Of a stretch of 64,000 bases of DNA, positions 1,730 through 31,355 are shown piece by piece. Below the pieces are notes generated by a model that saw nothing but the letters and a program-made list of their open reading frames with translations, made no database searches and was not told the origin of the DNA. The stretch is from a virus (Duplodnaviria; Heunggongvirae; Uroviricota; Caudoviricetes). Every line of letters starts with the position of its first letter. The stretch's first letter is position 1. The position numbers and the translations under genes are program-made. The stretch is from the IMG/VR virus record IMGVR_UViG_2574180019_000006; one strand, written 5' to 3'.

Positions 1730-3646
1730 ATGAAGTTTTTAAAGCTCCAGGTTGAGAATTTTATGGCTATCGCCAGCGCGGAGGTCGAGTTAGATCAGCG
1801 TGGTTTAGTGCTCATTCAGGGTGTTAATAGTGATGATAGTTCCGCATCAAGTAATGGCTCTGGAAAGTCAACGCTAATGAATAGCCTGATGTGGTGTCTT
1901 TATGGCGAAACAGCTCATGGTGTGAAGGGTGACGATGTGTTGTCTACCGACCATGAAAAGAACTGTCGTGTTGCAGTAACCATCGAGGATGAAGGCAAGA
2001 GATATGCGATCATTCGTCACCGTAAACACAAAGAGTTCAAAAATCGGCTTATCGTTCGTGGTGAAGACGGCGATATGACGAAAGGCAAAGATGCGCTGAC
2101 GCAAGAGTTCGTCGAGCGTCTGATCGGTGCATCTAAAGAGGTTTTCATGGCTTCCATCTATGCGAGCCAAGAAGCTATGCCAGATTTACCTGGAATGTCC
2201 GACAAAAACCTCAAAACCATCGTAGAAGAAGCCGCTGGCGTTGACAGACTGACACGCGCCTACGCTATTGCTCGTGAGCGAGCTAATGCAGCTGCCGCAC
2301 GTATGGATGTGGTTAAAACCAAATTGGAGTCGACAATCTCGACCATTGAGGCAACACAGTCAGAAATTGAGTCAGCGAAAGCCTCCTCTGAATCATGGGA
2401 GCAAGAGCGTTCTAAACGTTATGACGATGCCCTGGCTGGGCTGGCCAGTGCCGAAGTTGAGTTAACGGAAGTTGAACTTGAGATCCGCACTCTTCCCGAA
2501 CAGATCCGTGATACCGAGAAGGCAATCGAAAGTGAGCGCAAAAAGTTAGCCTCAAAAGAAGAACATGACGCCAAGTTGCTCAAAGTTCGTGGTGCGATAA
2601 CTGATATTCGGGCAAGCATCAAAGCTACAGAAAATAGTCAGGCTGATGCAATGAGCCGCGCGCGTAATTTTAAGACCAAAGCAGAAGAGGTTGGTACTAA
2701 AGTGGGATCACCATGCCCTACTTGTGGCAAAGCCTACTGCGAAGAAGATCTATCAACGGTGAAGGAGAATTTCATTGAACAAGCACGTCAGGAAATTGGT
2801 CAGGCGAAGACACTTGCAGAGGCAATGGCTAAACACAAAACGAATCTTGAGAAAGCGTTAAGCATTGAGTCTGCCCTTGTTAAAACGACACCTGATGTAA
2901 CGGCTATCATTGCCCGGATTGAAGAGCTTACGAAACAACTCTCATCTTTGCGTCATCGTGAGAAGGAGGTTGTTGCTATTGAGTCTCTTGTGACTCGTGC
3001 TCGTACTGAGGTCGATCGTATATCAAAAGAGATTAATCCGTTTATTGCTCTTATCGCCAGACACGAAGATAACCTGGTATCCAGTAAGTCTACCTTCAAG
3101 TCCTTAAAAGATGAGTTGAAGGCTATTCAGGAACAAACGTTGCTATTGGAAAAAGCTCGTCAGGTCTACTCTCCTGCCGGGGTGCGTTCTCATATTTTGA
3201 CGTCTGTTACGCCTTTCCTGAATACACGCACTGCCGAGTATCTCAATACGTTGTCTGACGGGAATATTACTGCTGAGTGGTCGACGATGGATGTCACTAA
3301 AAAAGGTGAGTATCGCGACAAATTCAACATTAGTGTGCAGAAGAAAGGTTCAAGTAAGTCGTTCCAGACCCTCTCTGGTGGTGAGAAGCGGAAGGTTCGC
3401 ATTGCGTGTTCTTTGGCATTGCAGGATCTGGTTAGTAACCGGGCGAGTAAAAACATCGATTTGTTTATCGGCGACGAAATTGACGATGCACTCGATACAG
3501 CCGGTCTTGAACGCCTCATGGGTATTCTGGAGTCCAAAGCTCGCGAGCGAGGTACTGTGCTGATTATCTCCCATAAAGAGATGAAGTCATGGTTCCGGGA
3601 AACTATTACGCTGGAAGTTAAAGAGGGGCGCAGCTATGTCGTTTAA
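1730..3646 (+). CDS. SbcC/Rad50-family ATPase
   Basis: N-terminal Walker A GSGKST, long central coiled-coil with CPTCGKAYC zinc-hook-like CxxC, C-terminal ABC signature LSGGEKRKV and Walker B DEIDDALD; 638 aa. Confidence 0.75.
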   Translation: MKFLKLQVENFMAIASAEVELDQRGLVLIQGVNSDDSSASSNGSGKSTLMNSLMWCLYGETAHGVKGDDVLSTDHEKNCRVAVTIEDEGKRYAIIRHRKHKEFKNRLIVRGEDGDMTKGKDALTQEFVERLIGASKEVFMASIYASQEAMPDLPGMSDKNLKTIVEEAAGVDRLTRAYAIARERANAAAARMDVVKTKLESTISTIEATQSEIESAKASSESWEQERSKRYDDALAGLASAEVELTEVELEIRTLPEQIRDTEKAIESERKKLASKEEHDAKLLKVRGAITDIRASIKATENSQADAMSRARNFKTKAEEVGTKVGSPCPTCGKAYCEEDLSTVKENFIEQARQEIGQAKTLAEAMAKHKTNLEKALSIESALVKTTPDVTAIIARIEELTKQLSSLRHREKEVVAIESLVTRARTEVDRISKEINPFIALIARHEDNLVSSKSTFKSLKDELKAIQEQTLLLEKARQVYSPAGVRSHILTSVTPFLNTRTAEYLNTLSDGNITAEWSTMDVTKKGEYRDKFNISVQKKGSSKSFQTLSGGEKRKVRIACSLALQDLVSNRASKNIDLFIGDEIDDALDTAGLERLMGILESKARERGTVLIISHKEMKSWFRETITLEVKEGRSYVV

Positions 3647-4379
3647 ATTAAGCCGCTCGCAGTTTTTGCAGGTATTTGCAGTGATGCAGTCGATAAAACT
3701 GATCAATGGGCATACTTCCAATGGTGCGGCTCCACGTATTCTGTGGAGCAGCAACAATATTGACGGAGTACAATTCGCCGCGTTGCTTGGTCTAATATCC
3801 GAGACACCATTGATGCAAAGTTTGAAATCACTACCACCTGGATGTATTGCGCCGATCCTGATTAATCCTTTTGTTGAGGGGGGATATCTTCCCAACGTCG
3901 GGCCTGGGTTTATTGCATCCCATGAAACTGAAGATCTTAACATTAATAGCGAAGGGTTCTTTGGGGGAATGGGTGCGCATCACTGTATGGCTTTCACGAA
4001 CCTTATTCGACTTGCCAATAAGCGGGTGGATAGTTTGGCATCGCCAGGTGATGCTTTTACTGGTTTCCTTATCCAAAGGAGGGATAAAAAGTACAGTACG
4101 GACAAACTACAGTTTGTTGGTAAGTATGGAGAAATGGTAGAAATCGAACTTCAGCTCCCTCATGTTTTAGCAAACGATAGTGCAGACAGTCGGAGGCTGT
4201 TGGGCATCATGCGTCATTTCATAGCAAGTGGTGTTAAACATGCCGCAGATAAACGTGTCACGCAGGAAAATGAGTATTCAGACTTTGCAAACTATCCCCA
4301 ACCAACGTTGCAAACGGCAATAGTAGCCAATTCGTTGGAGGCGAGATTATTGGAAAACCCTATATGGGGAACATGGTAA
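3636..4379 (+). CDS. hypothetical protein (247 aa)
   Basis: ORF overlapping SbcC-like stop by 11 nt (operon-like coupling); no recognisable motif. Confidence 0.45.
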   Translation: MSFKLSRSQFLQVFAVMQSIKLINGHTSNGAAPRILWSSNNIDGVQFAALLGLISETPLMQSLKSLPPGCIAPILINPFVEGGYLPNVGPGFIASHETEDLNINSEGFFGGMGAHHCMAFTNLIRLANKRVDSLASPGDAFTGFLIQRRDKKYSTDKLQFVGKYGEMVEIELQLPHVLANDSADSRRLLGIMRHFIASGVKHAADKRVTQENEYSDFANYPQPTLQTAIVANSLEARLLENPIWGTW

Positions 4380-4388
4380 GGAGACTAT

Positions 4389-4958
4389 ATGAGTAAAAAA
4401 ATCAGCGTAGTTGGTGTTGATCCCTCAATGAGCAACTTTGGGCTTGCTGTGGGCACTTTAGACCTTGAGACGGACGAACTTGAGATTCACGGCCTTACTC
4501 TTGTTGAGACTAAAGCGGGGAGTAACAAAAAGACCGTTCGTGTGAACAGTGACGATCTGCGCCGAGCCAGTGAAATATGGCGTGTTGCGAAGCCAATCAT
4601 TGATAAGGCAAATATGGTTTTTTGTGAGCTACCGGTTGGGAGCCAAAACTCTCGTTCGCAGACGTCTTACGGTATTTGTATCGGTGTACTTGCGTGTGTG
4701 GATAAGCCATTGATCCAGGTTACTCCAAACGAAATCAAGCATTTTGTCGGCAATAAACTTACTACATCGAAAGAAGAGATTATCCAGTGGGCTACGAAAA
4801 AACACCCTAAAGCACCGTGGCTGCGTCGTAAGCAATCTGGACAGGATGTTCTCGTGAACAAAAACGAACATTTGGCTGATGCGGTGGCTGCCATCCATAC
4901 CGGTATGCAAACAGATCAGTTCCGCCAGGTGCGCGATGTTCTTAAGTCTCTCATTTGA
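4389..4958 (+). CDS. putative RuvC-like Holliday-junction resolvase
   Basis: N-terminus VVGVDPSMSNFGLAV resembles RuvC/A22-type resolvase motif I; strong RBS ggtaaggagac; adjacent to recombination nuclease genes. Confidence 0.4.
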   Translation: MSKKISVVGVDPSMSNFGLAVGTLDLETDELEIHGLTLVETKAGSNKKTVRVNSDDLRRASEIWRVAKPIIDKANMVFCELPVGSQNSRSQTSYGICIGVLACVDKPLIQVTPNEIKHFVGNKLTTSKEEIIQWATKKHPKAPWLRRKQSGQDVLVNKNEHLADAVAAIHTGMQTDQFRQVRDVLKSLI

Positions 4959-4965
4959 TTTCATT

Positions 4966-4986
4966 GATAGGTAAGTGCTTATCTAT
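4966..4986. promoter_or_regulatory. Intergenic palindrome gataggtaagtgcttatctat
   Basis: Member of recurrent palindromic element family, directly after stop of preceding gene. Confidence 0.35.
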
Positions 4987-4992
4987 TAACAT

Positions 4993-5022
4993 GGGCCACT
5001 ATATTTAGTGGCCCTCTTTATT
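4993..5022 (+). terminator. Rho-independent terminator-like hairpin
   Basis: gggccactatatttagtggccc stem-loop followed by tctttattt. Confidence 0.5.
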
Positions 5023-5031
5023 TGGTGATAC

Positions 5032-7347
5032 ATGATAAGCATCGTAAAACGTAACGGCCAAACAGAGCCGTTATCCGAAGAAAAATACAACCGCGTCGTA
5101 ATGTATGGCGTAGAAGGCATTCGTGGTGTAAGCGCATCCGCTGTAGCAATGGGAGCTGCGGCCAGCATTTTTGATGGGATGACCACCAGCCAGTTGCATG
5201 AGGCTTTGGTTAAATCTGCCGCTGATTTGATCTCACCAGAAGCACCAAATTACTCACAGGTGGCTGCCCGCCTGAACATTTTTAAAATCCGCAAAGATGC
5301 CTTCGGTCGTTACGACTATCCGAACTTCTACCAACACATTGTCAAGAACGTTAACAAGGGCGTTTATGACAAGGATTTGCTGACACATTATTCGTTTGAA
5401 GAGATCGAAGAACTCGGCAATTACATTAAGCCTAAACGTGACGATCTTTTTGGCTATGCAGCTACGGTGCAGTTGCAAAGCAAATACCTCGTTCAAAACC
5501 GTGTTACTGGTGAGATTCATGAGGGGCCGCAACATATCTATATGCTGGTAGGCATGTGTCTGTTCCAGAATTGGGAAGACGACTGCGCTGGCAAAACACG
5601 TATGGAGATGGTCAAAGGTTTCTATGACGTTACAAGTACGTTCAAACTGTCTCTGCCCACACCAATCATGGCCGGCGTCCGTACTCCTACCCGTCAGTTC
5701 TCCAGTTGTGTGCTGATTGAGTCTGGCGATAGTCTGAAAGGGATTAGTGCAGCTTCAGCCGCAATTATCGACTACGTTTCACGTCGTGCTGGAATTGGTA
5801 TTGGTTTTGGCCGTATCCGTGCGCTGGGCAGCGAGATCCGCAATGGTGAAGCCACCCATACCGGAGTTATTCCATTCCTGAAGCATTTCCAGACGGCTGT
5901 TAAATCTTGTTCGCAAGGTGGTGTTCGTGGTGGCGCAGCAACAGCGTTTTACCCGATCTGGCATCTTGAAGTTGAAAGTCTGCTGGTGGTGAAAAATAAC
6001 CGTGGTATTGATGAAAACCGCGTTCGCCATCTTGATTACGGCGTCATGAGTAACCGTCTAATGTACCGTCGACTCGTCAGAAGCGAGAACATCACTCTGT
6101 TCAGCCCGCATGATGTGCCTGATATGTACGAAGCCTTCTTCACAGACCAGGAGCTGTTTGAAAAGCTGTACCATAAATACGAAGCCGATGATTCAATTCG
6201 CAAGAAGTCAGTACCTGCCATTGAGCTGTTCTCATCTCTGATGCAGGAACGAGCGTCCACGGGCCGAATTTATATTGCGAACGTCGATCATATTAATGAG
6301 CATGGCGCTTTCATTCCTGCTCTTGCACCTGTCCGCCAGTCAAACCTGTGTATGGAGATCACCCTACCCACCCGTCCACTGGCATTTACCGACGACCCGA
6401 ACGGTGAGATCGCGCTATGCACTTTATCCGCTTTTAACCTCGGAGCCATCCGTTCACTGGAGTCTCTTAAAGAGGTGGCGTTCTATGCCGTTGCTGCACT
6501 GGATTCGTTACTGGATTATCAAGACTATCCGATGGAGGCAGCCGAAGTGCCTGCCAAAGCTCGTCGTAGCTTGGGAATTGGTGTAACCAACTTTGCTTAT
6601 TACCTGGCAAAGAATGGCGTTCGTTATTCTGATACCGCTGGCAATAAACTGGTGCATGAAACGTTCGAAGCTATCCAGTATTACCTTCTTGATGCCAGCT
6701 GCCGACTTGCTGAAGCAAAAGGTGAGTGTGACTGGTTTGAGCAGACCAAATACGCAATTGGTCAGTTGCCGATCGACCATTACCGTTCTTCATTAGACGA
6801 AAGTGGCGAAACCAACTTTGAGTTAAAGATGCCGTGGGAAGAACTGCGTGAACGTATTGCAAAATACGGCCTTCGCAACTCCACACTGACGGCACAAATG
6901 CCATGCGAGACTTCCAGCCAGATCACTAATTCCACCAACGGCATCGAACCGCCTCGTGGCCCGGTGTCGGTGAAATCTTCTAAGGACGGCATCGTTAAGA
7001 TGGTCGTGCCTGAGTTTGAAAAACTGAAGGAACAGTATGAATACCTGTGGGATATGCCGGACAACCGCGGCTATCTGACAAAGGTGGCGATCATCCAGAA
7101 GTTCTTTGACCAGGCTATTTCAGCCAATACCAACTATGACCCTTCTCGCTTTGAAGGCGATAAAGTCCCAATGATGACGCTACTGTCAGATTTGCTTCTC
7201 GCCTACAAGATGGGAGTTAAAACGCTTTACTACCACAACACCAGAGATGGTGCAGGAAAGCGTGATGACGACGAACCGCAGAATCCACTGGCGCAAGCTG
7301 TAGCCGTCGAGCCAGAAGATGAGTGCGACGGAGCCTGCAAAATCTGA
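5032..7347 (+). CDS. nrdA: Ribonucleotide reductase class Ia large subunit
   Basis: 771 aa; N-terminal ATP-cone-like VKRNGQTEPLSEEKY; C-terminal tail ...EDECDGACKI matches NrdA redox-active C-terminus; followed by nrdB. Confidence 0.9.
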   Translation: MISIVKRNGQTEPLSEEKYNRVVMYGVEGIRGVSASAVAMGAAASIFDGMTTSQLHEALVKSAADLISPEAPNYSQVAARLNIFKIRKDAFGRYDYPNFYQHIVKNVNKGVYDKDLLTHYSFEEIEELGNYIKPKRDDLFGYAATVQLQSKYLVQNRVTGEIHEGPQHIYMLVGMCLFQNWEDDCAGKTRMEMVKGFYDVTSTFKLSLPTPIMAGVRTPTRQFSSCVLIESGDSLKGISAASAAIIDYVSRRAGIGIGFGRIRALGSEIRNGEATHTGVIPFLKHFQTAVKSCSQGGVRGGAATAFYPIWHLEVESLLVVKNNRGIDENRVRHLDYGVMSNRLMYRRLVRSENITLFSPHDVPDMYEAFFTDQELFEKLYHKYEADDSIRKKSVPAIELFSSLMQERASTGRIYIANVDHINEHGAFIPALAPVRQSNLCMEITLPTRPLAFTDDPNGEIALCTLSAFNLGAIRSLESLKEVAFYAVAALDSLLDYQDYPMEAAEVPAKARRSLGIGVTNFAYYLAKNGVRYSDTAGNKLVHETFEAIQYYLLDASCRLAEAKGECDWFEQTKYAIGQLPIDHYRSSLDESGETNFELKMPWEELRERIAKYGLRNSTLTAQMPCETSSQITNSTNGIEPPRGPVSVKSSKDGIVKMVVPEFEKLKEQYEYLWDMPDNRGYLTKVAIIQKFFDQAISANTNYDPSRFEGDKVPMMTLLSDLLLAYKMGVKTLYYHNTRDGAGKRDDDEPQNPLAQAVAVEPEDECDGACKI

Positions 7348-7366: not shown

Positions 7367-8705
7367 CATAAGCGCTAACTTAAGGGTTGTGGTATTACGC
7401 CTGATATGATTTAACGTGCCGATGAATTACTCTCACGATAACTGGTCAGCAATTCTGGCCCATATTGGTAAGCCCGAAGAACTGGATACTTCGGCACGTA
7501 ATGCCGGGGCTCTAACCCGCCGCCGCGAAATTCGTGATGCTGCAACTCTGCTACGTCTGGGGCTGGCTTACGGCCCCGGGGGGATGTCATTACGTGAAGT
7601 CACTGCATGGGCTCAGCTCCATGACGTTGCAACATTATCTGACGTGGCTCTCCTGAAGCGGCTGCGGAATGCCGCCGACTGGTTTGGCATACTTGCCGCA
7701 CAAACACTTGCTGTACGCGCCGCAGTTACGGGTTGTACAAGCGGAAAGAGATTGCGTCTTGTCGATGGAACAGCAATCAGTGCGCCCGGGGGCGGCAGCG
7801 CTGAATGGCGACTACATATGGGATATGATCCTCATACCTGTCAGTTCACTGATTTTGAGCTAACCGACAGCAGAGACGCTGAACGGCTGGACCGATTTGC
7901 GCAAACGGCAGACGAGATACGCATTGCTGACCGGGGATTCGGTTCGCGTCCCGAATGTATCCGCTCACTTGCTTTTGGAGAAGCTGATTATATCGTCCGG
8001 GTTCACTGGCGAGGATTGCGCTGGTTAACTGCAGAAGGAATGCGCTTTGACATGATGGGTTTTCTGCGCGGGCTGGATTGCGGTAAGAACGGTGAAACCA
8101 CTGTAATGATAGGCAATTCAGGTAATAAAAAAGCCGGAGCTCCCTTTCCGGCACGTCTCATTGCCGTATCACTTCCTCCCGAAAAAGCATTAATCAGTAA
8201 AACCCGACTGCTCAGCGAGAATCGTCGAAAAGGACGAGTAGTTCAGGCGGAAACGCTGGAAGCAGCGGGCCATGTGCTATTGCTAACATCATTACCGGAA
8301 GATGAATATTCAGCAGAGCAAGTGGCTGATTGTTACCGTCTGCGATGGCAAATTGAACTGGCTTTTAAGCGGCTCAAAAGTTTGCTGCACCTGGATGCTT
8401 TGCGTGCAAAGGAACCTGAACTCGCGAAAGCGTGGATATTTGCTAATCTACTCGCCGCATTTTTAATTGACGACATAATCCAGCCATCGCTGGATTTCCC
8501 CCCCAGAAGTGCCGGATCCGAAAAGAAGAACTAACTCGTTGTGGAGAATAACAAAAATGGTCATCTGGAGCTTACAGGTGGCCATTCGTGGGACAGTATC
8601 CCTGACAGCCTACAAAACGCAATTGAAGAACGCGAGGCATCGTCTTAACGAGGCACCGAGGCGTCGCATTCTTCAGATGGTTCAACCCTTAAGTTAGCGC
8701 TTATG
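7367..8705. mobile_element. IS186 (IS4 family) insertion sequence, ~1339 bp
   Basis: Terminal inverted repeats cataagcgctaacttaagggttg (7367-7389) and caacccttaagttagcgcttatg (8683-8705); flanked by 10-bp direct repeat ggggatatcc (7357-7366 and 8706-8715); encodes 372-aa transposase recognised as IS186. Confidence 0.85.
7416..8534 (+). CDS. insL: IS186 transposase
   Basis: 372-aa ORF filling the IS; N-terminus MNYSHDNWSAILAHIGKPEELDTSARNAGALTRRREIRD recalled as IS186 transposase. Confidence 0.85.
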   Translation: MPMNYSHDNWSAILAHIGKPEELDTSARNAGALTRRREIRDAATLLRLGLAYGPGGMSLREVTAWAQLHDVATLSDVALLKRLRNAADWFGILAAQTLAVRAAVTGCTSGKRLRLVDGTAISAPGGGSAEWRLHMGYDPHTCQFTDFELTDSRDAERLDRFAQTADEIRIADRGFGSRPECIRSLAFGEADYIVRVHWRGLRWLTAEGMRFDMMGFLRGLDCGKNGETTVMIGNSGNKKAGAPFPARLIAVSLPPEKALISKTRLLSENRRKGRVVQAETLEAAGHVLLLTSLPEDEYSAEQVADCYRLRWQIELAFKRLKSLLHLDALRAKEPELAKAWIFANLLAAFLIDDIIQPSLDFPPRSAGSEKKN

Positions 8706-10022: not shown

Positions 10023-10892
10023 ATGAACTTTACCAAACTGACTGACCACCTGAAACTTGCCACCGATCGACTCATTGGATTTAAGCCAGAACCATATGAG
10101 TTGCATGAAGGCCATGGTGTAGCCACTGAAAGTATTTACAAGATGGTCGATCAGTTTCATGAACTCTTCCAGCATCCGAGACGCGTTATGCCGACACCAG
10201 AGCTGCTTCGTCTCCGTGCAAGCCTGATTCATGAAGAAGCTGTAGTGGAAGGTATTCCAGCCGCAATGAATGGGGATATTGAGCAACTGCTGGATGCAAT
10301 GGCCGACTTTTTATACGTTGGTGTTGGTACGATGGTCGCCATCAAAGGTGGTATTTCTACCGGCATGACTTATTACACGCAGGAACAGAGCATTGATCGC
10401 TTTATGCAGACAATTTTTGTGCCTGGTAACACTGTTTTCGATGATATGGCAATGCCATTTCAGGAAGCTCGTGAGGCGTCATGTATGCTCGAAGAGCTGG
10501 CAGATAAACTTGAGAAGAAGACTGTTAAGGATTCTGAGCTGATTCAGGAACTGCGCCGTGTAATGAACAAAATCTATGTGGCGTGCATGATGACTTATCG
10601 ACTGGCTGATTTTCTCGGTATCAATGTCGTCGAGCTGGTTGGCGAAATTCATCGGTCCAACATGACAAAATTATGGCCTGCAGATGCCGAAGAGCGTCGC
10701 CATGCTGTGGCCAACTGCAAATACGACTCTTCTGACCTGGGATTTCGCCATGCTGATGGCACCGATAAGATGATCGGTTTTCGAATTTCCGATGGAAAGA
10801 TTCTGAAGTCTCCAACCTATAGTGATGTCGATTTATCCTCCTTTGTTGAGCAAGCTAAAGCCTCAGCAATGTACGGAATGATCAAAAAATAA
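10023..10892 (+). CDS. putative all-alpha NTP pyrophosphohydrolase (MazG/dimeric-dUTPase-like)
   Basis: Segment IHEEAVVEGIPAAMNGDIEQLLDAMADFLYV fits MazG-type E-E-x2-E ... E-x2-D-x2-D-F-L pattern; nucleotide-metabolism neighbourhood. Confidence 0.4.
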   Translation: MNFTKLTDHLKLATDRLIGFKPEPYELHEGHGVATESIYKMVDQFHELFQHPRRVMPTPELLRLRASLIHEEAVVEGIPAAMNGDIEQLLDAMADFLYVGVGTMVAIKGGISTGMTYYTQEQSIDRFMQTIFVPGNTVFDDMAMPFQEAREASCMLEELADKLEKKTVKDSELIQELRRVMNKIYVACMMTYRLADFLGINVVELVGEIHRSNMTKLWPADAEERRHAVANCKYDSSDLGFRHADGTDKMIGFRISDGKILKSPTYSDVDLSSFVEQAKASAMYGMIKK

Positions 10893-10960
10893 TTGTAGGT
10901 AGTTATCTATCTGTGTATATTGCGCTGGCGCGTTAAATTTCTGAAACAACTATTCGTTTT

Positions 10961-10988
10961 TGGTGGCCTATGGCCACCATTTTTTTAT
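10961..10988 (+). terminator. Rho-independent terminator
   Basis: tggtggcctatggccacca hairpin followed by T7 run. Confidence 0.55.
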
Positions 10989-11036
10989 CTGTCTGGTCTT
11001 GTTCTCTCAATAAATGTAAACTCACGCAATGAATAA

Positions 11037-12167
11037 GTGGTTACTTATCTTTGTGAGGTTTTTGTGTCACTCCTTTTGAATCGTGAGCATACGAACGGTC
11101 AGGTAACAAACGCATCGTATGCAAAAGTTATTGAGACGGTGCTTAAAAGCGGCGTGCAGGCTGATGATCGCACAGGCACTGGTACTTTAAGCACCTGTTA
11201 CGTTCCCTCTTACTACATGCTTACTGGTGGGACTGTGCCGCTTATTTCTGGAAAGGCGGTAAATCTTAAGCCACTGCTTGTCGAACTTGAGTGGTATCTG
11301 AAAGGCACGGGCAACATCCAATTTCTCAAGGATAACGGCGTTAAGATTTGGGATGCATGGGCCGATGAGAATGGCGATTTGGGGCCGGTTTACGGTAAGC
11401 AGTGGCGTCGATGGGAAGATACCCGCATCGTGAGCCATAGTGAATATCTGAGCAAGATCGCTACTTTCCGTGAACGCGGGTACAAAGTCGAGGGATACCT
11501 GGGTATCAGTGAAGATCGCGTAGTGCTGTCCCGTGAAATCGATCAGCTACAGCGTATTGTCGATACACTGCGCACGAACCCTACCGATCGTCGCATCATG
11601 CTTAACGCATGGAACGTAGGCGAGCTTGAGGATATGAAACTGCCACCTTGCCACTTTGTCTTCTCTTTGTGGAGTCGTGAACTGGATTTTGAAACCCGTT
11701 TAACGATGGCAACTGACATTGGTCTTCAACACAGTCGCCTCGGTTACGAGTCTATCTACACCAAGATGCTATACGATCTGGAGATGGACGGCAGTGTTAC
11801 TGAAACTGAACTGGATGAACTTGGAATCCCCAAACGCATCCTCAACTCCTGCCTCGTACAGCGTAGCGTAGACACTTTTGTTGGTATGCCATTCAATATT
11901 GCTGGCTATGGCATTCTCACTCATTTTCTCGCGAAGATTACGGGTCACATGGCCGGTGCATTTGTGCATTTTGGCTTTGACGTGCATTTGTACAACAACC
12001 ACATGGAAGGTGTGTGTGAGCTAATGCAACGACAGGCTCCAGAGCATTCAGATCCGGTCGTTATATTCCCTAATGAATGGTCTGAGCTGGATGATTTCAA
12101 ATGGGACGAGATTCTTATTCTTGGCTATGCCCCTCTACCGTGGATCAAGGTTCCAGTGGCGGTGTGA
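11037..12167 (+). CDS. thyA: Thymidylate synthase (ThyA-like) with two large insertions; true start probably GTG at 11064
   Basis: Conserved ThyA blocks DDRTGTGTLS, WADENGDLGPVYGKQWR, DRRIMLNAWNVGELEDMKLPPCHFVFSLW (catalytic Cys), VDTFVGMPFNIAGYGILTHF, HLYNNHME, GYAPLPWIKVPVAV; ~35-aa and ~60-aa inserts relative to E. coli ThyA. Confidence 0.8.
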   Translation: MVTYLCEVFVSLLLNREHTNGQVTNASYAKVIETVLKSGVQADDRTGTGTLSTCYVPSYYMLTGGTVPLISGKAVNLKPLLVELEWYLKGTGNIQFLKDNGVKIWDAWADENGDLGPVYGKQWRRWEDTRIVSHSEYLSKIATFRERGYKVEGYLGISEDRVVLSREIDQLQRIVDTLRTNPTDRRIMLNAWNVGELEDMKLPPCHFVFSLWSRELDFETRLTMATDIGLQHSRLGYESIYTKMLYDLEMDGSVTETELDELGIPKRILNSCLVQRSVDTFVGMPFNIAGYGILTHFLAKITGHMAGAFVHFGFDVHLYNNHMEGVCELMQRQAPEHSDPVVIFPNEWSELDDFKWDEILILGYAPLPWIKVPVAV

Positions 12168-27309: not shown

Positions 27310-27600
27310 TCTATTTTTAACCCAACATACCCTCAATACTGCAACATCAGTGTCTTGCGAATTAAGATAGTGTGAATAGATTTTTCATGCAAGTGCATAA
27401 GCCTGTGGATAACTCAGGAAGGAAAAAGTGACTTCTGCGCACTTTAGACCGGACAAGGCGTTCGAAAAAGTCAATGGGAAGAAAAAATTTGTTAAAAATA
27501 ACGTTTGTTTGAATTGTATATATTTATGCCTTTCAATAGTTAGCATCTTATTAACATCTTTTTTAAGAGATAGAGTTCAAAAATATATAGCTTCAATATA

Positions 27601-27620
27601 TACTGTATGTGTATACAGTA
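27601..27620. promoter_or_regulatory. LexA (SOS) box
   Basis: tactgtatgtgtatacagta = CTGT-N8-ACAG palindrome matching the LexA operator consensus, 16 nt upstream of the UmuD'-like start with RBS aagagg between. Confidence 0.7.
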
Positions 27621-27636
27621 TTAAGAGGCGAGTATT

Positions 27637-28026
27637 ATGGGCTTCCCTTCTCCTGCGGCGGATTATGTTGAGAGCCGTATTTCTCTTGATCAGCAGATAA
27701 TTAGACATCCTTCAGCGACCTACTTCATGAGAGCGGCTGACAGCCATCATCGTGAGGGAATATTGCAGGGCGCATTGCTGGTGGTCGATTCCTCACTTAC
27801 CCCGGTTGATGGTTCTCTGCTTGTATGCGCTCTGGATGGGGAATATCGCGTAAAAAGATACCGGAAGTATCCACGTCAGCATCTGGAGGATTTAAGAACT
27901 GGTAAGAAGGAAGCATTGCCAAAGGATGACGATGGATGCACGGGCAGCAATGCCGTGTTTGGTGTGATCACTCACATTATCAACGACGCAAGAAGTGGCG
28001 AGTTTGATGATTGTCCCGTGATGTAG
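27637..28026 (+). CDS. UmuD'-like S24 peptidase-family protein (starts at the position equivalent to the UmuD autocleavage product)
   Basis: MGFPSPAADYVESRISLDQQIIRHPSATYF nearly identical to E. coli UmuD residues ~25-55 as recalled; Ser of GDS(M) retained as ADSH and Lys in VKRY; C-terminal third diverged; no umuC follows. Confidence 0.7.
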   Translation: MGFPSPAADYVESRISLDQQIIRHPSATYFMRAADSHHREGILQGALLVVDSSLTPVDGSLLVCALDGEYRVKRYRKYPRQHLEDLRTGKKEALPKDDDGCTGSNAVFGVITHIINDARSGEFDDCPVM

Positions 28027-28037
28027 GAGAACTGATT

Positions 28038-28063
28038 AGGCGGTGCAATGCACCGCCTTTTTA
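28038..28063. terminator. Bidirectional terminator hairpin between UmuD'-like gene and mrp
   Basis: aggcggtgcaatgcaccgcc hairpin with T-run on plus strand; convergent gene ends. Confidence 0.5.
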
Positions 28064-29164
28064 TCACACTGCGCGGAATGCGATTTCGCCAGGTATTACT
28101 TCACCTTGCCAATACATTTGGGCAGCAACGCGATCTGCGAGGTCACGATAAATAGCTGTAAATTCGCTATCTGGACGACTAATAACGGTTGGTGTTCCGT
28201 TATCCAGATCTTCACGAAGAGAGATATGAAGTGGCATTTGGCCTAACAACTGCGTGTTGTATTTCTCGGCCAGTTTCTGTGCGCCACCGGTGCCAAAAAT
28301 TGGCTCGTGATGACCGCAGTTACTGCAAATATGCACACTCATGTTTTCAACGATACCCAGTACCGGCACTTCGACTTTTTCGAACATCACAATGCCTTTC
28401 TTCGCATCGATCAGCGCGATGTCTTGCGGCGTAGTTACCACAACCGCACCAGTTACAGGAATGTTCTGCGCCAGCGTCAACTGAATATCACCAGTGCCCG
28501 GCGGCATATCGAGAACAAGATAGTCCAGATCAGGCCACAATGTTTCCTGCAACATCTGCATTAACGCCTTGCTCGCCATCGGTCCACGCCACACCATTGC
28601 ATTGTCGTCGGTGACCAGATAACCAATAGAGTTGGTTGCCAGGCCATGAGACATGATAGGTGCCATGTGAGTACCGTCAGGTGAGGTTGGACGTTGGTTT
28701 TCCGCGCCCAGCATGGTTGGAATTGATGGACCATAGATATCGGCATCCAAAATACCAACTTTCGCACCTTCAGCAGCCAACGCCAGTGCCAGGTTTACCG
28801 CCGTGGAGGATTTACCCACGCCGCCCTTGCCTGAGCTGACGGCGATAATGTTCTTAACGCCATTAATGCCTGGTTGGTTTTTGACACGCTTAAGCGTGGC
28901 AATGTTGTACGACAGCTTCCAGTCAATAGCCTTTGCGCCAGTGATACGGAGCAGATCACCACTACATTGCTCTTTCAGGTCTTCAAAAGGCTTATTCCAC
29001 ACGAAAGGCATGATTAGTTCGACATGCAGTGTGTCATCCATCAACGCAACATGGTGTAACGCTTTAAGCGTAGTCAGGTTGTGTTTCAGGGTTGGGTGCT
29101 GAAAATTAGCCAGCGTACCGGCTACCATTGCTCTCAGGGCATCCGGCGATTTGGACTCGCTCAT
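28064..29164 (-). CDS. mrp: Mrp/ApbC Fe-S cluster carrier ATPase (ParA/MinD-family)
   Basis: 366 aa; deviant Walker A SGKGGVGKSST, CxxC (CSNCG); near-identical by recall to enterobacterial Mrp/ApbC; divergent from metG as in the E. coli chromosome. Confidence 0.9.
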   Translation of the reverse strand: MSESKSPDALRAMVAGTLANFQHPTLKHNLTTLKALHHVALMDDTLHVELIMPFVWNKPFEDLKEQCSGDLLRITGAKAIDWKLSYNIATLKRVKNQPGINGVKNIIAVSSGKGGVGKSSTAVNLALALAAEGAKVGILDADIYGPSIPTMLGAENQRPTSPDGTHMAPIMSHGLATNSIGYLVTDDNAMVWRGPMASKALMQMLQETLWPDLDYLVLDMPPGTGDIQLTLAQNIPVTGAVVVTTPQDIALIDAKKGIVMFEKVEVPVLGIVENMSVHICSNCGHHEPIFGTGGAQKLAEKYNTQLLGQMPLHISLREDLDNGTPTVISRPDSEFTAIYRDLADRVAAQMYWQGEVIPGEIAFRAV

Positions 29165-29321
29165 CCCGTCTCCTTTATTTTAATTTGCGCAATTGTCGCC
29201 TTGTAGTGTACTCCAGCTACGACATTTAATCATTTATGAGAAATGCTGTTATCACATGGCAGACATAAGGCCATTTTGTTACTATCAAGCCCCTTTTCAC
29301 TACAAAGAAGTAATGCCTACT

Positions 29322-31355
29322 ATGACCCAAGTCGCGAAGAAAATTCTGGTGACGTGCGCGCTGCCGTACGCTAACGGCTCAATCCACCTCGGCCATATGC
29401 TGGAGCACATCCAGGCTGATGTCTGGGTTCGTTACCAGCGAATGCGCGGCCACGAGGTTAATTTCATCTGTGCCGACGATGCCCACGGTACGCCAATCAT
29501 GCTGAAAGCACAGCAGCTTGGTATCACACCGGAACAGATGATTGGCGAAATGAGTCAGGAACATCAGACTGATTTCGCAGGCTTTAACATCAGCTATGAC
29601 AACTATCACTCTACGCACAGCGAAGAGAACCGTCAGTTGTCCGAGCTTATCTATACTCGCCTGAAAGAGAACGGTTTTATTAAAAACCGCACCATCTCTC
29701 AGCTGTACGACCCGGAAAAAGGCATGTTCCTGCCGGACCGTTTTGTAAAAGGCACATGCCCGAAATGTAAAGCGCCGGATCAATACGGCGATAACTGTGA
29801 AGTCTGCGGCGCGACATACAGCCCGACGGAACTGATCGAGCCGAAATCAGTGGTTTCTGGCGCTACCCCGGTAATGCGTGATTCCGAACACTTCTTCTTT
29901 GATCTGCCCTCTTTCAGCGAAATGTTGCAGGCATGGACCCGCAGCGGTGCGTTGCAGGAGCAGGTGGCAAACAAAATGCAGGAGTGGTTTGAATCTGGCC
30001 TGCAACAGTGGGATATCTCCCGTGACGCACCTTACTTCGGTTTTGAAATTCCGAACGCACCGGGCAAATACTTCTACGTCTGGCTGGACGCGCCGATTGG
30101 CTACATGGGTTCCTTCAAGAATCTGTGCGACAAACGCGGCGATACCACCAGCTTCGATGAATACTGGAAGAAAGACTCCACCGCCGAGCTGTACCACTTC
30201 ATCGGTAAAGATATTGTTTACTTCCACAGCCTGTTCTGGCCTGCCATGCTGGAAGGCAGCAACTTCCGCAAGCCGACCAACCTGTTTGTTCACGGCTATG
30301 TGACGGTGAACGGCGCGAAGATGTCCAAGTCTCGCGGCACCTTTATTAAAGCCAGCACCTGGCTGAATCATTTTGACGCCGACAGCCTGCGTTACTACTA
30401 CGCTGCGAAACTCTCTTCGCGCATTGATGATATCGATCTCAATCTGGAAGATTTCGTTCAGCGTGTGAATGCCGATATCGTTAACAAAGTGGTTAACCTG
30501 GCCTCCCGTAATGCAGGCTTTATCAACAAGCGTTTTGACGGCGTGCTGGCAAGCGAACTGGCTGACCCGCAACTGTACAAAACCTTTACTGATGCCGCTG
30601 AAGTGATTGGCGAAGCATGGGAAAGCCGCGAATTTGGTAAAGCTATCCGTGAAATCATGGCATTGGCTGACCTGGCTAACCGCTATGTCGATGAACAGGC
30701 TCCGTGGGTGGTGGCGAAGCAGGAAGGACGCGATGCCGATCTGCAGGCGATTTGCTCTATGGGCATTAACCTGTTCCGCGTGCTGATGACGTACCTGAAG
30801 CCGGTACTGCCGAAACTGACTGAACGTGCAGAAACATTCCTGAATACAGAACTGACCTGGGATGGTATCCAGCAACCGCTGCTGGGCCATAAAGTGAATC
30901 CGTTCAAGGCACTGTATAACCGTATCGATATGAAGCAGGTTGAAGCACTGGTGGAAGCATCTAAAGAAGAAGTGAAAGCAGCTGCCACGCCAGTAACTGG
31001 CCCGCTGGCAGATGATCCGATTCAGGAAACCATCACCTTTGATGACTTCGCCAAAGTTGACCTGCGCGTGGCGCTGATTGAAAACGCAGAGTTTGTAGAA
31101 GGTTCTGACAAACTGCTTCGCCTGACGCTGGATCTCGGTGGTGAAAAGCGTAATGTCTTCTCAGGCATCCGTTCCGCTTATCCAGATCCACAGGCACTGA
31201 TTGGTCGTCACACCATTATGGTGGCTAACCTGGCACCACGTAAAATGCGCTTCGGTATCTCTGAAGGCATGGTGATGGCTGCTGGCCCTGGCGGGAAAGA
31301 TATCTTCCTGTTAAGCCCGGATGTCGGTGCTAAACCTGGCCACCAGGTTAAGTAA
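29322..31355 (+). CDS. metG: Methionyl-tRNA synthetase
   Basis: Starts [30 protein letters not shown] (HIGH motif), KMSKS present, C-terminal tRNA-binding domain; essentially colinear with E. coli MetG as recalled; ORF-track start 29193 is an upstream in-frame extension. Confidence 0.95.

Follow-up and report, generated by a model that had tools for sequence, protein, structure and literature searches.

A stand-alone humD gene behind a predicted LexA operator on an SSU5-type phage-plasmid of Escherichia coli

RESULTS

Organization of the humD locus

Analysis of the window, by which we mean the whole 64,000-nucleotide stretch of DNA under study, revealed a short gene that lies between a predicted LexA operator and a transcription terminator. 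The features of the locus, all of them on the plus strand, are the following:

27576..27604, plus strand: predicted sigma-70-like promoter (-35 TTCAAA, 17-nt spacer, -10 TATACT; 9 of 12 positions match the consensus)
27601..27620, plus strand: putative LexA operator (SOS box) TACTGTATGTGTATACAGTA, with 2 mismatches to the 20-nt consensus, assigned from sequence only
27623..27628, plus strand: Shine-Dalgarno sequence AAGAGG, read from the sequence, 8 nt 5′ of the ATG
27637..28026, plus strand: humD coding sequence with an ATG start, 129 amino acids and a stop codon; a UmuD′-sized member of the S24/UmuD fold family
27991..28023, plus strand: HumD-specific C-terminal tail RSGEFDDCPVM (residues 119-129), missing from UmuD
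28038..28066, plus strand: intrinsic terminator, with a hairpin at 28038-28058 (9-bp stem with 7 G-C pairs, 3-nt loop) and a T run

The window was scanned for LexA operators with the 20-nt consensus TACTGTATATATATACAGTA. The box TACTGTATGTGTATACAGTA was the sole site of the 64-kb window within 3 mismatches of this consensus, and no match was obtained in any of 100 dinucleotide-preserving shuffles of the window (0/100). The looser core CTGT-N8-ACAG occurred 3 times against 0.78 expected, and for this reason only the full box can be considered informative. A gap of 16 nt separates the box (27601-27620) from the open reading frame; the distance from the box to the ATG, box included, is 36 nt here and 39 nt in both K-12 umuDC and P1 humD. 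The box is identical in the sister plasmid pTW10722_119, in the records of P1 and phiKO2 the corresponding position is annotated as bound by LexA, and an operator of this type is kept 5′ of the gene in eight other homologs. The LexA box that the original prediction had placed in front of this open reading frame is thus borne out at the level of sequence matching, and we infer that this copy of humD is under LexA control.

The promoter scan was weak when taken alone, since it returned 3 sites against 2.2 expected. The predicted -10 element TATACT overlaps the LexA box by 4 nt, and such a placement of the promoter relative to the operator would correspond to a typical repression geometry. The terminator sits between the convergent genes humD and apbC, and the N15 and phiKO2 records mark a terminator at the equivalent relative position. 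Altogether, the succession of promoter, operator, ribosome binding site, open reading frame and terminator indicates that humD is a self-contained monocistronic cassette. No divergent open reading frame lies beside humD in the window, where just a promoter-like site was seen on the minus strand (27624-27595). A search at the Rfam gathering threshold and a tRNA scan detected no known RNA family or tRNA gene in the whole window, including the 800-bp gap upstream of humD.

The gene product belongs to the HumD family

The protein matched the NCBIfam equivalog NF051876, the 'HumD family translesion DNA polymerase' model, with 221.7 bits against a cut-off of 120, and the alignment placed residues 1-129 of the protein on positions 1-129 of the 129 of the profile. 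RefSeq contains a 100%-identical copy that already bears this name. Among phage genomes, identity reached 92-93% with the proteins of P1 and P7, 69-74% with N15 gp26 and phiKO2 gp23, and 45-50% with homologs from Hafnia and Aeromonas phages. The score with the UmuD subfamily model NF007621 / PRK10276 was 88 bits, which is below its cut-off of 110 and leaves the protein outside that subfamily. It is therefore close to certain that the gene is the ortholog of humD and encodes an ordinary, already-annotated member of the HumD family.

A stand-alone humD preceded by a LexA box is not new but a known phage gene. In the P1 entry AF234172, the annotation of humD reads 'DNA repair; functionally complements E. 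coli UmuD′', a further feature is labelled 'LexA binding site in the regulatory region of lxr and humD', and humD has been termed a LexA-regulated SOS gene (PMC9603915).

With regard to the structure, the UmuD′ chain 1umu of the PDB was matched with E = 1.7e-23, residues 2-118 of the query being aligned with residues 1-114 of the 116 of the chain. AlphaFold2, run from 98 close homologs that were all at least 67% identical, gave a mean pLDDT of 48 and a pTM of 0.40; the low pLDDT probably stems from an alignment of close homologs that is too shallow. Judged by alignment, the UmuD′ fold of HumD is settled by the match to the solved UmuD′.

The protein begins at the UmuD′ N-terminus and its gene has no umuC partner

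Alignment with UmuD and UmuD′ showed that the first residue of the open reading frame after the methionine is the equivalent of UmuD Gly25, where UmuD′ begins, and that HumD residues 2-12 (GFPSPAADYVE) match UmuD residues 25-35 at 100%, in line with the UmuD′-like N-terminus that had been predicted. An in-frame TAA is located at 27622-27624, 4 codons 5′ of the ATG. A longer HumD N-terminus is therefore impossible, and an N-terminally extended form of the protein was ruled out. The product has the size of UmuD′, and both the N-terminal arm and the cleavage site are absent from it. The proposal of a stand-alone gene for a protein that is born in the UmuD′ form proved correct, and it is also the textbook description of HumD.

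Consistent with the predicted lack of a umuC partner, a tblastn search of the window with K-12 UmuC as query found no umuC (best E = 4.1). In addition, the annotation of the entire 111,954-bp plasmid that matches the window at more than 99.9% identity lists no Y-family polymerase. HumD is not in an operon with a umuC-type gene; what follows it is the terminator and then the convergent apbC.

The Ser/Lys dyad is present in this copy but drifts across the family

Ser36 and Lys73 of HumD align with Ser60 and Lys97 of UmuD. The serine motif of HumD is ADSH, compared to GDSM in UmuD, and it carries a one-residue deletion. Three hallmarks of UmuD, namely the Cys24-Gly25 self-cleavage site, the arm and the G-D-S-M motif, are thus not found in HumD. 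At the nucleophile position, 120 family clusters plus the query showed serine in 75 cases, threonine in 44 and alanine in 2, and the preceding aspartate was variable. Distant homologs have tyrosine or glutamine at this position, and three have methionine or arginine at the position of the lysine. Because serine alternates with threonine in close relatives, tyrosine and glutamine occur in distant ones and the lysine drifts to methionine or arginine, protease chemistry is probably dispensable. According to these alignments, the dyad is present in this HumD without being a constraint on the family, as would fit a protein that has nothing to cleave. The retained Ser/Lys dyad context of the original prediction stands only loosely: Ser36 and Lys73 are aligned, but the motif is ADSH and not GDSM and the positions drift across the family.

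The presence of Ser36 and Lys73 in this copy, the match of the protein to the Pfam S24 peptidase domain (PF00717, Peptidase_S24; E = 1.5e-9) and the automatic naming of relatives as 'LexA family transcriptional regulator' by several sources could suggest that HumD is an S24 protease or repressor which cleaves itself and responds to RecA filaments, in the manner of a LexA/CI-like induction sensor. An SOS-linked induction sensor had indeed been among the roles first proposed. The data contradict this proposal, which we regard as very improbable. The LexA model TIGR00498 gave 28.5 bits, below the cut-off of 110.95, with a match limited to profile positions 90-166, and the LexA-type N-terminal winged-helix DNA-binding domain is absent from HumD, which places the protein outside the LexA family. 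With no DNA-binding domain, this 129-residue protein begins past the cleavage site, and a Cys-Gly or Ala-Gly cleavage site is absent from it. Furthermore, relatives with threonine, tyrosine or glutamine at the nucleophile, next to an aspartate that is not conserved, argue against a sensor that works by self-cleavage.

The divergent C-terminus carries a conserved acidic tail

Identity between HumD and UmuD was 79% for residues 2-30, 42% for residues 31-75, 14% for residues 76-107, where HumD carries a 4-residue insertion relative to UmuD, and 36% for residues 108-118. These last two values, followed by an 11-residue tail without UmuD counterpart, confirm that the C-terminal third is divergent, as had been noted. 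The divergent C-terminus is the normal HumD sequence and no sign of decay.

Across the 120 clusters, conservation of the tail segment EFDDCPVM (residues 122-129) ranged from 80 to 98%, and from 90 to 98% for residues 122-128. The tail is kept even in the Hafnia and Aeromonas phage homologs that are 45-50% identical to HumD, the most distant forms being EFDDNPCM and EWDDLPVI. Such strong conservation of a segment that UmuD′ is missing suggests that HumD may do something beyond what UmuD′ does. In the literature that was searched, which did not include the two primary papers, no discussion of the HumD tail was found.

Counted from the C-terminus, EFDDCPVM is in register with DFDDDIPF, the tip of E. 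coli SSB: both show [D/E]-F-D-D from position -7 to -4 and end in a hydrophobic residue, with a proline at -2 in HumD and at -1 in SSB. This likeness concerns a motif of 9 residues that was matched post hoc and checked at the sequence level, and it is a long shot that residues 122-129 would be a short linear motif mimicking the acidic C-terminal tip of SSB. Literature searches for SSB-tip mimicry, or for any connection of UmuD with the tail of SSB, gave nothing relevant to HumD. If the mimicry were real, a HumD-UmuC complex could dock on, or compete for, the many proteins of repair and replication that recognise the tip of SSB, and the phage-plasmid could thereby gain a private route to recruit translesion synthesis.

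humD is intact and under purifying selection

Relative to P1 humD, DNA identity was 85%, and the substitution rates were dS 0.87 and dN 0.038, which gives a dN/dS of 0.044. Comparison with the sister plasmid pTW10722_119 gave 8 differences over 701 bp; all 8 fall inside the open reading frame, 7 of the 8 are synonymous, and promoter, operator, ribosome binding site and terminator are identical between the two. With an intact reading frame and a dN/dS of 0.044 relative to P1, which denotes purifying selection, humD is not a remnant.

The alternative, that humD is what recombination left of a umuDC operon, a 5′-truncated and decaying piece, had been raised in the form of a mosaic remnant of umuD. 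Real humD remnants are known: P22-like phages such as BTP1 have a stop codon and a frameshift in the gene, and Stx and lambdoid phages contain unannotated pieces that cover just residues 45-128. The present copy, in contrast, is full length against the HumD family model. Moreover, it shows a dN/dS of 0.044 over a dS of 0.87, it is equipped with an operator, a ribosome-binding site and a terminator of its own, its start point is the same in homologs of only 45% identity, and about 630 plasmid records hold a copy that is at least 90% identical. The selection and conservation data have already refuted the remnant reading, to which we give practically no credence.

Among P22-like phages, BTP1, ST-35 and BIS08P22 have a humD pseudogene that is disrupted by a stop codon and a frameshift. 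The LexA box is still intact in the BTP1 copy (601-976 of the stretch examined), which was the one inspected.

humD is probably variable cargo of an SSU5-type phage-plasmid

By nucleotide similarity, the window is part of an E. coli phage-plasmid of the SSU5 type, a siphovirus. With 20 kb of its structural genes as query, identity amounted to 81% with SSU5, over 81% of the query length, and to 94-98% with the E. coli phages CMS-2020a, PhiR41_1 and Cyrano. The identical plasmid encodes RepB, ParB, dnaE, recA, nrdAB, thyA, DfrA51 and CTX-M-15, and it also has terminase, portal, capsid, tape-measure and tail genes. In NZ_JBSTRI010000003.1, which is the same phage-plasmid, the element's own dnaE and RecA genes lie outside the window (3194-5557; 10477-11550), and the dnaE gene, for the DNA polymerase III alpha subunit, is interrupted by an HNH endonuclease gene. 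The plasmid pPRO_A-1374-6M-A_2 is otherwise more than 99.9% identical and is missing about 1.3 kb of the window (7368-8703); this segment contains an open reading frame of 372 amino acids (7416-8534, plus strand), inserted between nrdA and nrdB, whose product presumably is an IS4-family transposase, IS186-like.

Within this element, humD is placed between the 800-bp non-coding gap and a captured apbC-metG pair. The segment comprising humD and apbC was present in E. coli members but, among the matches listed, neither in SSU5 nor in the Klebsiella relatives; the segment therefore appears to be variable cargo. The apbC (minus strand) and metG (plus strand) genes at 28064-31355 are a diverged copy, about 90% identical, of the chromosomal apbC-metG. 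The chromosomal pair was found in 5426/5426 E. coli genomes and the version of the window at 223 plasmid places, which means that the phage-plasmid bears a second copy of the essential methionyl-tRNA synthetase gene.

The family to which humD belongs comprises 570 protein clusters at 90% identity, mostly from Enterobacteriaceae. A humD match was obtained in 774 of 5426 complete E. coli genomes, and 703 of the 817 places where it occurred were on plasmids.

DISCUSSION

A proposed role for HumD

The reading that we favour, with a probability of about three in four, is that humD is a LexA-controlled monocistronic cargo gene whose product partners the UmuC of the host without RecA-mediated processing. 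In an undamaged cell, host LexA would sit on the operator that overlaps the -10 element and keep humD off. After DNA damage, RecA filaments would promote LexA self-cleavage and humD would be transcribed. Because it begins where cleavage of UmuD creates the UmuD′ N-terminus, HumD would not need RecA-mediated cleavage, and a HumD dimer could join host UmuC, which SOS induces simultaneously, and so form a translesion polymerase resembling Pol V. Lesion bypass would then begin earlier than the slow step from UmuD to UmuD′ allows, and the element would replicate damaged DNA better.

From this analysis we infer that HumD partners host UmuC and that the element benefits; complementation of UmuD′ is on record only for the P1 protein, which is 92% identical. 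The original prediction that HumD modulates host translesion synthesis through UmuC or RecA filaments holds in so far as such an activity is reported for P1 HumD, and it would extend to this copy by homology. McLenigan and colleagues (1999) reportedly observed that P1 HumD complements UmuD′ strongly only from a high-copy plasmid, and they are said to have merely speculated on why P1 needs HumD. It is because complementation was reportedly strong only at high copy that our estimate for the mechanism is not higher.

The conserved tail and the drift of the catalytic positions also bear on another explanation, according to which HumD would be mainly a modulator and no polymerase subunit, binding RecA filaments or forming heterodimers with host UmuD. 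It could then damp recombination, make the SOS or UmuD checkpoint act earlier or later, or provide an input to the decision between lysis and lysogeny, and the conserved acidic tail could be a contact that UmuD′ is without. Several observations would fit: few parts of the family are as conserved as EFDDCPVM, which UmuD is missing; the catalytic positions drift as the remainder of the protein stays under strong purifying selection; phiKO2 pairs humD divergently with dinI, which encodes a RecA-filament binder, through one LexA site; P1 humD is paired with a second LexA-regulated gene, lxr; and this type of phage-plasmid has its own recA and dnaE outside the window. Against this, the sole experiment on record in this family showed complementation of UmuD′, and over its first 30 residues HumD has 79% identity with UmuD′, as fits a common partner. 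We therefore consider a role as modulator unlikely, though it deserves more weight than any of the other alternatives to the partnership with host UmuC.

HumD has been named and characterised in P1 since the 1990s, and as a discovery the present gene carries little weight. What the analysis adds is a view of how the cassette of LexA box and humD is spread over temperate elements that are unrelated to one another, namely myoviruses of the P1 type, linear prophages of the N15 type, lambdoid and P22-like phages and, in the present case, siphovirus phage-plasmids of the SSU5 type. Certain relatives of this plasmid carry CTX-M-15 and DfrA51, so that an SOS-induced mutagenesis helper travels with resistance-bearing elements. 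The drift of the catalytic dyad amounts to a natural experiment, indicating that UmuD′ function probably has no need for protease chemistry. Finally, the conserved acidic tail offers a cheap, testable handle on why phages carry humD.

Comparison with known systems

The closest known system is HumD of P1 and P7, which like the protein described here has 129 residues, starts at the equivalent of Gly25, ends in the C-terminal tail and has no umuC partner. The surroundings differ, because in P1 humD lies between the divergent LexA-regulated lxr and the phd-doc addiction module. At the DNA level, the window becomes similar to P1 a few bases ahead of the LexA box and ceases to be so at the stop codon, and tblastn found none of the P1 neighbours Lxr, Hot, Phd and Doc in the window. 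The dS of 0.87 between the two humD genes indicates that the transfer was not recent. A second similarity to P1 was seen further upstream, where positions 27385-27487 are 76% identical to the P1 upfN/upfO region, which is annotated with two predicted DnaA boxes. The stretch contains a perfect DnaA box, TGTGGATAA, whose first base is 27404; the window as a whole has only 2 such boxes. In P1, hot and lxr separate the piece with the DnaA boxes from the LexA box; the window is without both genes.

The same arrangement recurs in other phages. In the eight other stand-alone homologs, which were those of P1, N15, phiKO2, HK639 and Enterobacter, Hafnia and Aeromonas phages plus the BTP1 pseudogene, the start was in every case (8/8) at the equivalent of Gly25, and the sequence TACTG-N10-CAG was found 34-64 nt upstream. 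N15 gp26, phiKO2 gp23 and the UmuD-like proteins of HK639 and of Enterobacter, Hafnia and Aeromonas phages are stand-alone, UmuD′-sized cargo of the 'moron' type. Their genes have the LexA box, an own terminator and the conserved tail in common with humD of the window; the proteins are 45-74% identical to it, and some have threonine, tyrosine or glutamine in place of the serine and methionine or arginine in place of the lysine. These genes are placed after tail-fibre genes or beside integrase or partition genes. In phiKO2 (281-984 of the stretch examined), a single LexA site lies between humD and the divergent dinI, the position taken by lxr in P1. Phage Oslo, in contrast, carries a full-length umuD followed by umuC.

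Two further groups show what sets HumD apart. The plasmid-borne umuD-type genes (MucA/ImpA/RumA class, by annotation 'umuD' of conjugative plasmids) encode S24/UmuD homologs that are 38-48% identical to HumD. Their alignments end at query residue 115-120, so that they lack the tail, and unlike HumD these proteins are annotated as autoproteolytic subunits, that is, as full-length precursors. E. coli UmuD/UmuD′, the accessory subunit of Pol V (1umu, 1i4v, 8gmt), has, as far as the sequence indicates, the same fold as HumD, and the geometry of the LexA operator is common to both. UmuD has a 24-residue N-terminal arm, the Cys24-Gly25 site and a place in an operon with umuC, and HumD is without all three; as it lacks the arm and the cleavage site, HumD would have no RecA-dependent activation step.
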